Below, one piece after another: positions 94 to 7,922 of a stretch of DNA of 64,000 bases. Under the pieces are notes generated by a model, which saw only the letters and a list, made by a program, of their open reading frames with translations, had not been told where the DNA came from and ran no database searches. Both the position numbers and the translations under genes were made by a program. Position 1 is the stretch's first letter, and every line of letters begins with the position of its first letter. This stretch comes from an uncultured Dehalococcoidia bacterium (lineage in GTDB: Bacteria > Chloroflexota > Dehalococcoidia > DSTF01 > JACRBR01), in NCBI GenBank assembly GCA_964371095.1, contig CAYJMJ010000004.1, positions 17,651 to 81,650 of the forward strand. Reading direction: 5' to 3'.

Positions 94-1395
94 TCATGGC
101 GTCAGTCGGTGCACGTCGCGCGGAAACAGCGCGACCTCGCGGACGTTCGCCACGCCCGCGATCTGCGCCACCCAGCGTTCCAACCCGATCGCGAACCCAC
201 CATGGGGCGGCATGCCGTACCGGAACGCCTCCAGGTAACCCTCGAGCGCGCTGGGATCCTGGCCCTGGGCAGTGAGCGCCGATACGTAATCCTCGTGACG
301 ATGCAGCCGCTGCCCGCCCGTCACGAGTTCGAGCCCTCTGAACAGCAGGTCGAAACTGTTCGAGAACTCCGGGCGCGTGCGGTCCGGATGCGTGTAGAAC
401 GGCCGCTTCACCATCGGGTAGCCGGTGACGAACAGAAAGTCCGATCCGTGCTGGCACCGCGCCCACTCGCCCAGCCACCGCTCGTGCGCGGGCGCGAGGT
501 CCGGTTCCCCGACCAGGTCTTCGCCGGTGGCATCGCCGATGATCTTGAGCGCGTCCGCGAAGTGCACCACCGGCACCTCGCACGGCACGGCCGGCAGCGC
601 GACATCGACGAGCGCCAGCGCATCGCCCGCTTCCGCCCGCAAGGCATCGACCATCGCCGCGAGGGCCGCGGTGAGGACCGCCATCACGTCGCAGTGGTCC
701 TCGATGAACCCCATCTCCGCGTCGAGCGAGACGTACTCGTTGAGGTGCCGCGCCGTGTCGTGCGGCTCTGCGCGGAACACCGGCCCAACCTCGAACACGC
801 GCTCGAACACGCCCACCATGATCTGCTTGTAGAACTGCGGGCTCTGAGCCAGAAACGCCGGCGTTCCCATGTAGTCGACGCCGAACACATTCGCGCCGCC
901 CTCGGTCGCCGCGCCGACGATTTTCGGCGTATGGATCTCGACGAAGCCCCGCGCGCGCAGCGCCGCGCGAAACCCGGAAAGCGACGCCGCCGCGAGCTGC
1001 CAGAGCGCGCGTCGCCGCGGGTGACGGAGCGTCAGCGCCGCGTGGTCGAGCAGCGTCGGAAGCTGGCTGTTCAACGCCGGCCGGAACAGCTCGATCGGGG
1101 GCGCCTCCGATGCGGCGGAGATCACCTCAATCTCCGGCTGGCGGACCTCGACGCCCATCGGAGCCTGCGCGTTCGCGACGGCCGCGCCTTCCACCGCGAT
1201 CGCCGACTCAGCGTGCAGCGCCTCGATCCGCTCGGCGACGGCCGGATCGTCGACGACGACCTGCGCCAGCCCGCGCGCATCGCGAAGGATCAAGAAGCTC
1301 ACGCGGCTCAGGCGCCGGACGCGATGTATCCAACCAGCGAGCCGCACACGTCGTCCGGCGTGGTTCGGCAGTTCGATGCTGTAGATCCGCTCCAC
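94..1395 (-). CDS. aspS: aspartyl-tRNA synthetase, class IIb archaeal/eukaryotic-type (probably non-discriminating)
   Basis: 433-aa ORF with an N-terminal anticodon-binding OB fold and class II motifs (FRAEPHDTARHLNEYVSLDAEMGF, GGFAIGLERWV). GTG start at 1393-1395, preceded by GGGGAGGGGAGG as a Shine-Dalgarno. Confidence 0.9.
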   Translation of the reverse strand: MERIYSIELPNHAGRRVRLAGWIHRVRRLSRVSFLILRDARGLAQVVVDDPAVAERIEALHAESAIAVEGAAVANAQAPMGVEVRQPEIEVISAASEAPPIELFRPALNSQLPTLLDHAALTLRHPRRRALWQLAAASLSGFRAALRARGFVEIHTPKIVGAATEGGANVFGVDYMGTPAFLAQSPQFYKQIMVGVFERVFEVGPVFRAEPHDTARHLNEYVSLDAEMGFIEDHCDVMAVLTAALAAMVDALRAEAGDALALVDVALPAVPCEVPVVHFADALKIIGDATGEDLVGEPDLAPAHERWLGEWARCQHGSDFLFVTGYPMVKRPFYTHPDRTRPEFSNSFDLLFRGLELVTGGQRLHRHEDYVSALTAQGQDPSALEGYLEAFRYGMPPHGGFAIGLERWVAQIAGVANVREVALFPRDVHRLTP

Positions 1396-1746
1396 GGCAA
1401 CACCTCCCCTCCCCGGCCCGCGCCAGCAGGCAGAGAGAACGCAAGACGCCCCACTCGCGCGGACGAGGGGGCGTCTCGTGGTGCCACCGCATGTTCACCG
1501 CCGATCGCTATCGATCGACAGCCTTGGAGCCGGATAACGGGGGCGAACCGTCGGGGGTCTACTGTGCGCGTGCGGTTCTTCCCCGCGCTCGGGAGGGTCT
1601 TCGCAGGGTCCGGAGGCCGCCGTCACACCGGCAGGCGGCTCTCTACGCTCCGGGATGCCCGCTACTCATCTCCGTCGGCGCTGTGCGCATATCCTACCCG
1701 GTTCGCGGGTGGCGGTGCCAACATCGAGACGCGGACCGGGCGCCGG
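1396..1746 (-). ncRNA. putative T-box riboswitch leader of aspS
   Basis: 350-nt non-coding gap 5' of aspS. Minus-strand GCGGUGGCACCACG (plus coordinates 1477-1490) matches the T-box core GGUGGNACCGCG, and its UGGC bulge fits a G73 discriminator, as in tRNA-Asp/Asn. It sits immediately 5' of the 1445-1475 hairpin, then about 45 nt to the SD and GTG. A GAUGAGUAGC stretch resembles the AG/GA boxes of Stem I. Confidence 0.45.
1445..1475 (-). terminator. intrinsic terminator-like hairpin (likely the T-box terminator arm, or the cysS operon terminator)
   Basis: Plus-strand gacgcccc (1445-1452) pairs with ggggcgtc (1468-1475) across a 15-nt loop. On the minus strand the hairpin is followed by UUGCGUUCUCUCU. 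Confidence 0.5.
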
Positions 1747-3119
<1,373 letters not shown>

Positions 3120-3123
<4 letters not shown>

Positions 3124-5793: not shown

Positions 5794-6210
5794 TTGACCG
5801 AAGAAATCACCGCCGACTTCCTGATCCTCGCCGATGCGGCGCAGGTCCAGGGCGAGAAGCTCTATTTGCTGGGCGGCGGATGGTCGCTCATCTGGGCCAA
5901 GGAGTTTCCCGCGCAGCACCAGATGGCCGTCGCCGCCGGCATCCTCATCCCGTGGATGGAGACGAATGCCCGCCACCAGTTCCGCATCCACGTCCACTCC
6001 GAGGACGGCGCGACGTTCGGCGACGTCAGCGGCGAGTTCGAGCAGGGCCGCGCGCCCGGCCTCCCGCCGGGAACCACGCAGCGCGTCATGCTCACCGTCA
6101 ACATGGGTATCCGCATCGAGCGGCCAACAGAAGCCGCCGCCGAACTGTGGCTCGACGGCGTGCTCGCGCGCTCCGTGCCCTTCCGGATCGCCGCGACGCC
6201 TCCGCGCTAA
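5794..6210 (+). CDS. conserved hypothetical protein (138 aa), co-oriented 10 nt downstream of the LCP gene
   Basis: Clean ORF with non-biased composition (MTEEITADFLILADAAQVQGEKLYLLGGGWSLIW...). No family recognised. Confidence 0.55.
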   Translation: MTEEITADFLILADAAQVQGEKLYLLGGGWSLIWAKEFPAQHQMAVAAGILIPWMETNARHQFRIHVHSEDGATFGDVSGEFEQGRAPGLPPGTTQRVMLTVNMGIRIERPTEAAAELWLDGVLARSVPFRIAATPPR

Positions 6211-6935
6211 CCGCGCGCCTTTCGTGACTGCCCGATGAATGCGTCGAACAGCCGCCGCATGAGCGGCGCGAACTCCGGTTTGTGCCCTTCGGGCCGCTCG
6301 GGGTGCCACTGGACGCTCACCACCCAGCGATGCTGCTCGCTCTCGGCGCCTTCGACCAGGTCGGACCCGTGATCGTCGGCGAACGCGATCGGCCGCAACC
6401 CGGCGGCCAACTCCGACGCCCCGACGGCCTGGTGGTGGCGCGAATTGACCTCGAATGCGGTCTCGCTGAACGCCGCCGCCAGCCGCGTGTCGCCGATGAG
6501 CCGCACGCGGTGCCACCGCGATGGGTACCCCGGCGTGCCGAAGTCAGCGCGATGCTCTCCGCTGTCGATGTGCTGGAGGAGTCCGCCACCGAATCCGACG
6601 TTCATGAGCTGGTGACCCCGGCAGATCGCCAGCACCGGGATATCGAGCCGCAGCGCTTGCTCCAGGTACGCAAGCTCCATCGCATCGCGCTCGGGCGACG
6701 TCTCCTTGACCTTCGGGTGGCGCTCGGCGGCGTAGCTCGACGGGTCGACGTCGATGCCGCCGGTCAGCATCAGCGCGTCGAGCGATGGCGCCAGGTCGGC
6801 GGCCCGGCCCACGGCCGCCTCGTTGAGGTCGATGACCTCGCCCCCGGCCTCCCGCACGCGCGACCAGTACCGGTCGAGCGCCTCGGCCGCCACGTCCTCC
6901 CAGCGCGTTACGCCGATGCGCGGCGCATCACTCAT
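6207..6935 (-). CDS. class I glutamine amidotransferase, gamma-glutamyl-GABA hydrolase-like (peptidase C26)
   Basis: Catalytic Cys in LAICRGHQLMNV and a His/Glu region (WHPE). 242 aa. Confidence 0.8.
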   Translation of the reverse strand: MSDAPRIGVTRWEDVAAEALDRYWSRVREAGGEVIDLNEAAVGRAADLAPSLDALMLTGGIDVDPSSYAAERHPKVKETSPERDAMELAYLEQALRLDIPVLAICRGHQLMNVGFGGGLLQHIDSGEHRADFGTPGYPSRWHRVRLIGDTRLAAAFSETAFEVNSRHHQAVGASELAAGLRPIAFADDHGSDLVEGAESEQHRWVVSVQWHPERPEGHKPEFAPLMRRLFDAFIGQSRKARG

Positions 6936-7088
6936 CGCGGTTCACCCCACTTGCCCCGTACCTGCGGCACCGCGGCATACGCCGGCATGCCTCACTCCGA
7001 GGTTACACGGTGCGCCCCGTGTCCGCACCGGGCGAACAAGAAGGGCAGCCTCGTGGCTGCCCGTTCGAGCTGCGGCTCGGCGAAGCGG

Positions 7089-7922
7089 TTACTCCTCGAA
7101 CTCCGGGTCGTCGGCGTCTTCGTCGCGCGCGACGTCGAACAGCGTGACCTCTCGAGGTTCGGCTTCGTGCTCGGCCTCGTGTTCCGTTTCCTCCCACTCC
7201 TCGTTCTCTTCGGCGAACTCGTCTTCCTCGTCGAGGTCGGCCCGCACGAGGCTCTCCTTGGTGTACGGCCGCACCACCTCGCCAGCCTTGCCCGCCGGGA
7301 ACGACAGCCGGCCCACCTGGCCCGGGTGCTGGAACGTCTCCTTGATGATCACCCGCACGCTGTCGCCGCTCAGGCCGGCGACCGCCGCGGCGTACTTATT
7401 GCCGCCGGCGATCAGCCTCGTCAGCCGCAGCGCCAGCTTCGGCTCGATGTCGCTGATGTAGTCGCCCGCCATCGTCTCGACCGTCAGGCGCGAGCCGATG
7501 GTCTTCAGCGCCACCTCGTCGCCGGCCGACAGCGTCGCGAGCATCTTGATGTTCGCGGGCTTGAGCACGGTCACGCCCGTCTTGCCCATCTCCTCGATGA
7601 ACAGGCTGGTGTCCACCTGCTGCGCCCTGTCCGGCTCCGCCTTGGCGCGCGCCGTCGCGAGCCGCTCGAGGTTCTTGCGGGCAATCGAATTGGTCGGCTC
7701 GAGTTCCAGCGCCTGGTGGTACGCCTCTCGAGCTTCCTTGATCTTGCCCGTCTCGCTCAACGCCTTGCCGAGCCGGTTGTAGGCCTCGGGCTCCGTGGGA
7801 AACACGGCGATGATCGCGCGGTTGGCCGTGATCGCGTCGTCCCAGCGGCTCTGCATCGCGAACTGGATCGCCTGCTCGGTCCGAACGCGCTTGATGCGCG
7901 CTTTGTCTTCGGTCTGGTTCAT
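7089..7922 (-). CDS. TPR-repeat protein with acidic C-terminal tail
   Basis: TPR-like helices (AYNRLGKALSETGKIKEAREAYHQALELEP) and a C-terminal Glu/Asp-rich tail. Start chosen at MNQTEDK (7920-7922), preceded by AGAGGA; the ORF is open up to 8006. Confidence 0.7.
   Translation of the reverse strand: MNQTEDKARIKRVRTEQAIQFAMQSRWDDAITANRAIIAVFPTEPEAYNRLGKALSETGKIKEAREAYHQALELEPTNSIARKNLERLATARAKAEPDRAQQVDTSLFIEEMGKTGVTVLKPANIKMLATLSAGDEVALKTIGSRLTVETMAGDYISDIEPKLALRLTRLIAGGNKYAAAVAGLSGDSVRVIIKETFQHPGQVGRLSFPAGKAGEVVRPYTKESLVRADLDEEDEFAEENEEWEETEHEAEHEAEPREVTLFDVARDEDADDPEFEE

Follow-up and report, generated by a model that had tools for sequence, protein, structure and literature searches.

Among described systems, the closest to the locus treated here are the transcriptional (class I) T-box leaders of Firmicutes, modelled in Rfam as RF00230, in which the domains run from Stem I to the T-box bulge and an antiterminator competes with a stronger terminator. 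The RegPrecise table lists T-boxes specific for aspartate (Asp) on hisS-aspS in Firmicutes and an Asp specifier on aspS in Lactobacillaceae, and places the clostridial aspS2-gatCAB operons under T-boxes specific for asparagine (Asn). Translational (class II) T-boxes are described for actinobacterial ileS (Sherwood et al. 2015, as summarized elsewhere), and the actinobacterial T-boxes covered in reviews are essentially those before ileS. For the five Chloroflexi genomes that it analyzes, the RegPrecise table has neither an Asp nor an Asn T-box, and an earlier description of the aspS leader family treated here may exist. The leader considered here precedes aspS on the minus strand of a 64,000-nucleotide (nt) stretch of contig CAYJMJ010000004.1 from an uncultured Dehalococcoidia bacterium, the whole of which is called the window below. 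Judging from sequence comparison, it is almost certainly a real Asp-specific T-box of the long-Stem-I type, placed before a gene for a non-discriminating aspartyl-tRNA synthetase (AspRS).

The window leader has the same domain order as the class I T-boxes of Firmicutes and likewise sets an antiterminator against a stronger terminator, but it differs from them in its GC content of 70%, a score below the RF00230 gathering score, a C after the specifier, an A-U in place of a G-U as the basal pair of antiterminator helix A2, and a degenerate U-tract. Its gene encodes a lone archaeal-type AspRS, whereas the Firmicutes hisS-aspS units combine hisS with a bacterial-type aspS. The clostridial aspS2-gatCAB operons are similar in that their non-discriminating AspRS, which serves tRNA-dependent asparagine formation, is likewise under T-box control; in contrast to those operons, which are listed under Asn and include gatCAB, the window has the specifier GAC, a lone gene, and no overlapping second codon. 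Compared with the class II ileS leaders, the window leader has a long Stem I and a competing hairpin that does not include the Shine-Dalgarno sequence (SD) and ends 46 nt before the start codon, and the gene and specifier also differ (ileS and AUC).

The whole of RF00230 (model positions 1-219 of 219) aligns with the window leader at 65.6 bits, with an E-value of 4.4e-13 in 5 kb and 5.7e-12 in 64 kb. Conservation was followed in 83 related loci with an AspRS gene, drawn from Chloroflexota and Actinomycetota and cited below by L numbers, using a covariance model (R1) trained on 14 leaders and a search threshold of E <= 0.01. R1 recovers exactly one full-length leader in 72 of these loci, in addition to that of the window, and every match lies immediately before aspS and on the coding strand; the 767 kb searched contain no further matches at this threshold. 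The arrangement, which the first-pass annotation of this DNA had regarded as less usual, is thus present in most of the related loci, with a T-box lacking by R1 in 11 of the 83. The T-box motif GCGGUGGCACCACG lies at 1490-1477 (minus strand), with UGGC at 1486-1483, and its core 12-mer, GGTGGNACCNCG, has a chance expectation of 0.21 occurrences per window and is seen twice. The second copy, GGTGGCACCGCG (6506-6517, minus strand), scores 1.9 bits with R1, sits in a coding open reading frame (ORF) of amidotransferase-like type (6207-6935, minus strand), and was set aside as a chance occurrence. Because of this second copy, the core motif alone is weak evidence, and it is the full-length Rfam match together with conservation in relatives that lifts the leader above chance. 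The features of the leader, from its upstream end to the gene, are as follows.

1716..1721, minus strand: putative promoter -35 hexamer, TTGGCA
1691..1696, minus strand: putative promoter -10 hexamer, TAGGAT
1687-1456, minus strand: T-box leader, full RF00230 match (65.6 bits); R1 match of 208.1 bits at 1686-1455
1587..1681, minus strand: Stem I, long form, from the Rfam alignment
1596..1602, minus strand: 3' side of the specifier loop, reading GAA (S-turn), GAC, C, from the Rfam alignment
1597..1599, minus strand: specifier codon GAC (Asp), at the Rfam specifier position and in agreement with the AspRS gene
1552..1585, minus strand: Stem II with its S-turn (GAA ... AGUA), from the Rfam alignment
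1529..1550, minus strand: Stem IIA/B pseudoknot, with the F-box CCGUUA at 1540-1535
1497..1522, minus strand: Stem III, from covariation
1474..1495, minus strand: T-box sequence AACAUGCGGUGGCACCACGAGA, with the bulge UGGCACC at 1486-1480
1459..1490, minus strand: antiterminator, helices A1 (GCGG/CCGC) and A2 (ACGAG/CUCGU) around the 7-nt bulge, -10.1 kcal/mol
1442..1478, minus strand: terminator hairpin of 16 pairs with one bulged U and the loop CCGC, -29.9 kcal/mol
1432..1441, minus strand: tail CGUUCUCUCU, a weak U-tract with 4 U in 9
1405..1439, minus strand: second hairpin, formed by the pyrimidine tail and a G-rich stretch 5' of and into the SD, of uncertain role
1407-1401, minus strand: SD, GGAGGUG, with 7 nt between its GGAGG core and the start codon; kept in relatives
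94..1395, minus strand: aspS, archaeal-type non-discriminating AspRS (NF003483, TIGR00458), GTG start, 433 amino acids

The fold of the leader is backed by covariation across the aligned sequences. The canonical T-box architecture used in the test, with the IIA/B pseudoknot as part of it, was written by hand from the Rfam alignment of the window, hand-writing having been chosen after RNAalifold placed some spurious long-range pairs on the seed alignment. Among the 14 leaders, 93.0% of paired cells can pair, compared with 38.9-46.1% in controls whose pairing partners were displaced by 1-3 columns; two-sided changes occur in 30 of the 53 pairs, and 500 shuffles gave no values as high as these. 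In Stem I, helices 1-5 are 82-100% paired, with 14 of 23 pairs changing on both sides, whereas the corresponding values for Stem II (helix 6) are 100% and 4 of 5 pairs; in Stem III (helix 9), all 10 pairs change on both sides across the 14 leaders, and antiterminator helices 10-11 are 94-98% paired. Within the pseudoknot, IIA (CGG/CCG) is invariant and IIB (GCC at 1544-1542 with GGC at 1531-1529) still pairs in L028, where U-A replaces C-G. Signature motifs are also conserved in the wider alignment of 73 leaders (the 72 loci plus the window), in 67 of which the specifier loop can be aligned. Stem I carries a GA/K-turn motif with GA at 1676-1675 and 1590-1589, an AG bulge, AGAGA, at 1644-1640 (found in 60 of the 73 leaders), and a distal loop at 1633-1622. 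The S-turn elements recur as GAA in 64 of the 67 alignable leaders and as AGUA in 59 aligned leaders, the F-box CCGUUA and its variants are conserved across the alignment, and the AA flanking Stem III (1495-1494) is present in 72 of the 73.

Two predicted tRNA contact sites bear on the specificity of the leader. Rfam places GAC at the specifier position in the window and in four orthologues, and GAC is invariant in the leaders with an alignable specifier loop (67/67), among which there is neither AAC nor any second or overlapping Asn specifier. The first-pass annotation had suggested looking for GAC or AAC in Stem I, and it is GAC, at 1599-1597, that occupies the site. The UGGC bulge to which it had also pointed lies at 1486-1483 and recurs in 70 of the 73 leaders, the remaining three having UGGU; C and U can both pair with G. 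Bacterial tRNA-Asp has the anticodon GUC and G73, and tRNA-Asn carries G73 as well. The bulge therefore fits a G73 discriminator, with the tRNA side taken from textbook identity.

The aspS product is an archaeal-type, non-discriminating AspRS by curated family cut-offs, as predicted from its sequence. It scores 555.1 bits against the curated NCBIfam model NF003483 (aspartate--tRNA(Asn) ligase; cut-off 353) and 383 bits against the curated NCBIfam model TIGR00458 (cut-off 368.4), and models of bacterial-type aspS score far under their own cut-offs on this protein. Among the matches listed, its nearest homologues are annotated as nondiscriminating aspartyl-tRNA synthetases; most of them belong to Chloroflexota and some to Armatimonadota, Dormibacterota, and Actinomycetota. 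The proposal in the first-pass annotation of a T-box before an archaeal-type, probably non-discriminating AspRS is hence upheld, with the domains present and co-varying, GAC as the specifier, and the NCBIfam cut-offs passed.

The 3' part of the leader can adopt either of two folds. The terminator re-pairs both strands of antiterminator helix A2 with downstream sequence, and since these strands are shared, the two structures are mutually exclusive. The 8-bp GC core of the terminator hairpin pairs GACGCCCC (1475-1468) with GGGGCGUC (1452-1445); this is the hairpin that the first-pass annotation had placed next to the T-box motif, and motif, hairpin, and spacing are all as it described on the minus strand, with the 8 bp forming the helix core of a 16-pair hairpin. 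Folding one structure against the other, as it had recommended, gives -29.9 kcal/mol for the terminator and -10.1 kcal/mol for the antiterminator. Transcriptional T-boxes in TBDB have antiterminators of -7.4 +/- 4.2 kcal/mol and terminators of -19.5 +/- 7.9 kcal/mol, and the calculated asymmetry of the window matches theirs. A stretch of 46 nt, which includes the SD, separates the terminator helix from the GTG start. In L082, a two-sided change in the terminator (CCCCC/GGGG to CCUCC/GAGG) keeps its pairing, and in 25 Chloroflexota-type leaders, the downstream terminator arm tracks the variable antiterminator loop. At the position of the weak U-tract of the window, L084 (76% identical) has UUUUUGCGUU and L005 has UGUUUUUGUG, both of which are called as terminators; more generally, lower-GC relatives have clear U-tracts there, and terminators are called in L084, L005, and L024. 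Transcription attenuation is probably the readout, as far as these comparisons indicate, and an Asp T-box that regulates aspS through such a mechanism is a likely explanation of the locus as a whole.

Several observations weigh against this explanation or against parts of it. With 65.6 bits, the leader falls short of the RF00230 gathering score of 93, and a default scan therefore reports nothing. The terminator scan of the window left uncalled the hairpin and its weakly U-rich tail. The base 3' of the specifier is C in the window (1596) and C, A, and U in 37, 29, and 1 of the 67 leaders, respectively, where a purine is usually preferred for stacking according to a review, as a preference and not an absolute requirement. 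The basal pair of helix A2 (1479/1463) is A-U in the window and never G-U in the family, being A-U in all 33 Chloroflexota-type and G-C in all 40 Actinomycetota-type leaders of the alignment, although a G-U wobble at this position has been described as a conserved steric sensor of the aminoacyl group; an A-U pair here also occurs in unrelated metagenome T-boxes and is not unique to the aspS family. Finally, the 64-kb window contains no tRNA genes, and thus no tRNA-Asp to compare, and 60 of the related loci contain no tRNA-Asp or tRNA-Asn gene, only genes for tRNA-Ala and tRNA-Pro.

The low RF00230 score bears on a rule of the first-pass annotation, which had named the lack of a hit above the gathering score as a ground for rejecting the T-box. 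The model does align over its full length with a very low E-value, and the score does fall short of 93 bits; that rule is too strict, however, because orthologous aspS leaders pass the gathering score (107.5 and 96.9 bits) and other high-GC ones stand at about 65 bits. Further orthologous leaders remain under it (82.3, 66.3, 65.6, 63.3, and 44.5 bits), and the high-GC leaders of Thermomicrobiales score about 65 bits with RF00230, like that of the window. The shortfall tracks GC content and insertions, not lost domains, and the sub-threshold match is real given the scores of the orthologues, the linkage to aspS, and the covariation.

In the Actinomycetota orthologues, the 3' part of the leader is organized differently. 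The 3' strand of helix A1 extends into a sequence that pairs with the SD (CACCUCC or CACUCCC), with neither a terminator nor a U-tract behind it. This SD-pairing platform is found about 60 nt before the aspS start in L026, L038, L045, L050, L054, L061, L065, L074, and others. Stem I is very short in six of these orthologues, namely L030 (3812-3967), L059 (3864-3972), L050 (1812-1952), L054, L065, and L057; GAC is part of the terminal loop of L030 (GGAG-AUGGACC-CUCC) and of L059 (loop GUGACG), and is present within the short 5' region of L050 and L065. These orthologues look like the class II ileS T-boxes in their SD pairing, and those with a short Stem I are similar to the ultrashort version known from actinobacterial ileS T-boxes. 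When the window was examined for the same class II traits, its SD (1407-1401) proved to lie outside the competing hairpin, which ends at 1442, and its Stem I to be long and not short. By sequence, the aspS leaders are one orthologous family that spans two phyla and includes both predicted readout types, and they form a convenient natural series for the study of T-box readout change.

The remaining explanations concern the gene to which the hairpin belongs and the tRNA that the leader senses. The hairpin lies downstream of cysS, the gene preceding aspS, and the 12-mer motif occurs once more by chance in the window, so that the hairpin could be the terminator of a cysE-cysS operon and the T-box-like motif an accident or a decayed relic, the alternative that the first-pass annotation had itself offered as a refutation. 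The hairpin begins 269 nt past the cysS stop codon, however, and full-length model match and covariation are not those of an accident. The three closest relatives on long contigs differ in the gene that precedes the leader, which is cysS in L081, one for a methyltransferase in L082/L083, and a divergent gene in L084, and the leader is kept in all of them from the promoter-like pair to the SD. The leader belongs to aspS and not to cysS, since it is kept where the upstream gene differs; the identity of the hairpin as a cysS operon terminator was rejected on finding the same leader and hairpin after a methyltransferase or divergent gene, and this explanation is extremely improbable. Dual sensing, in which the leader would also answer uncharged tRNA-Asn (anticodon GUU, G73) through a first-position G-U wobble, had been raised by the first-pass annotation and would suit a non-discriminating AspRS that charges both tRNAs, in phyla (Chloroflexi and Actinobacteria) reported to lack asparaginyl-tRNA synthetase (AsnRS). 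UGGC fits the G73 that both tRNAs have in textbook accounts, and a Lys T-box of B. cereus is reported to be partly induced by low tRNA-Asn charging (PMC2916919). Against this stand the invariance of GAC and the want of any AAC or second or overlapping Asn codon in the 67 leaders, the strong preference of T-boxes in TBDB for Watson-Crick pairing at all three specifier positions, and the fact that the clostridial aspS2-gatCAB operons that sense Asn are listed under Asn-specific T-boxes. Dual sensing is very unlikely, although a weak near-cognate response to tRNA-Asn through the first-position G-U wobble may occur.

A further alternative retains the same tRNA-Asp sensor but makes translation initiation or RNA stability, and not intrinsic termination, the step that is mainly regulated. 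The weak U-tract after the window hairpin and the clear use of SD sequestration by the Actinomycetota orthologues favor it, and two routes can be drawn for it in the window, one in which the 5' half of the T-box that is free in the OFF state (GGUGGCACC, 1488-1480) pairs with the start region (GGUGUUGCC, 1404-1396), and one in which the pyrimidine tail pairs with the SD region (1439-1405). For the first route, OFF-state folds contain the 9-bp pairing between bulge and start region in both the window and L082 despite their different spacers, the T-box 12-mer binds aspS start regions with a median of -15.8 kcal/mol compared with -8.6 kcal/mol for 129 other genes of the same loci, and a YYRYY spacer follows GGUG in 11 of 17 aspS regions but in only 1 of 18 controls. 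These aspS leaders share descent, however, and the bulge is invariant, so that true covariation is impossible; five control genes with GAGGUG reach -14.3 kcal/mol, the spacer variants are compatible with neutral transitions, and about ten unrelated UGGA T-boxes from metagenomes show no systematic pairing of bulge to start. Pairing of the bulge with the start region is thus not general and is a weak lead, suggestive only. For the second route, the pyrimidine tail UUCUCUCUGCCUGC after the terminator is one arm of the second hairpin, but this hairpin is absent in L081, L082, and L084 and forms in both switch states; with a z-score of -0.66, which is not significant, and its absence from these three closest relatives, it was rejected as a coupled SD sequestrator. 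In addition, proper terminators occupy the corresponding position in lower-GC relatives, and a mainly translational or stability-based readout is, on balance, unlikely in the window.

The two types of control could also be combined. In a two-level switch of high-GC Chloroflexota, consisting of the terminator plus pairing of the bulge with the ribosome-binding region, transcripts that leak past the weak terminator when tRNA is charged would also be translationally silent, as the freed bulge GGUGGCACC would pair with GGUG plus the YYRYY spacer, and the 3' end of uncharged tRNA on the bulge would free the start site. The tRNA end and the SD region would then share the T-box bulge as a binding site, and the arrangement would be a possible intermediate between the transcriptional form of Chloroflexota and the translational form of Actinomycetota; such a switch is unlikely. 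Two side observations belong to this region of the leaders. The 9-bp pairing between bulge and start is possible in many Chloroflexota orthologues with other spacers (UCACC, CCAUC, CUACC, and others), and L068 and L069 of Thermomicrobiales have a small CUCU/GGAG hairpin of the kind of the second hairpin.

For the preferred explanation, an Asp T-box acting by transcription attenuation, the sequences show the domains and their covariation, the identities of specifier and bulge, two helices that exclude each other, and the link to aspS; we infer tRNA binding, the promoter, and termination as the regulated step. Transcription would start from a promoter in the spacer just past cysS, and read-through from cysE-cysS would also cross the leader. 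The -35 position is kept in the four closest leaders (TTGGCA/TTGGCG/CTGGCG/GTGGCA), upstream of which the sequence diverges, and the -10 hexamer reads TAGGAT, TAAGAT, TAAGAT, and TATGCT in the window, L081, L082, and L084, respectively, with 3-5 nt between it and the T-box match downstream; a consensus promoter scan that allows spacers of 16-18 nt left this pair uncalled, its spacer being 19 nt. In the nascent leader, the Stem I specifier GAC (1599-1597) would pair with the GUC anticodon of tRNA-Asp, and the tip of Stem I would stack on the tRNA elbow. If the tRNA-Asp is uncharged, its G73-C-C-A 3' end would pair with UGGC (1486-1483) and stabilize the weak antiterminator (1490-1459), so that the polymerase would continue into aspS. 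If it is charged, the more stable hairpin (1478-1442) would form and transcription would stop before the ribosome-binding site. A fall in tRNA-Asp charging would consequently lead to more AspRS synthesis.

On the minus strand of the window, cysE, cysS, and aspS are consecutive, and the spacer between cysS and aspS is 351 nt long, from the TAG stop (1749-1747) to the aspS GTG (1395-1393). The two upstream genes are located as follows.

3893-3120, minus strand: cysE
TTG start at 3123, TAG stop at 1749-1747, minus strand: cysS

The TTG start of cysS overlaps the TGA stop of cysE (TTGA; 3120-3123, minus strand), which suggests translational coupling of the two genes. A Clostridium cysES is listed under a Cys T-box, and the sequence upstream of cysE within the window contains no T-box or other Rfam element. 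A spurious ORF of 867 amino acids (109-2712, plus strand) runs antisense to aspS and cysS, as is typical for DNA of 70% GC; this ORF tripped the automatic ORF filter, and the aspS gene of the window was left out of one control analysis. In the Rfam scan of the 64-kb window, there are no other T-boxes. A BsrF match at 2951-3006 (E = 7) is under its gathering score and was taken as chance, and a match to sR45, an archaeal C/D-box RNA, at 7075-7127 (minus strand), with 28 bits against a gathering score of 40 and E = 0.02 for the whole window, was also set aside as probably due to chance. Among the related loci without a T-box, L020, L023, and L027 have in common another stretch (…CTAGAATCGACCGCCAG…CTCCACC…) about 100 nt before the aspS start, which may represent a promoter followed by a short leader.

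The T-box class has long been known, and the understanding of their mechanism itself is unchanged by this locus. For annotation, the strict Rfam cut-off of 93 bits misses real T-boxes in GC-rich genomes, as the window and several orthologues score about 65 bits and nevertheless are complete in their domains and show covariation. In lineages for which an absence of AsnRS has been reported, a single non-discriminating AspRS yields both Asp-tRNA-Asp and the precursor of Asn-tRNA-Asn. From the sequence of the leader family, the synthesis of this AspRS appears to be tied to the charging of tRNA-Asp only, whereas Clostridia instead put aspS2-gatCAB under an Asn T-box.

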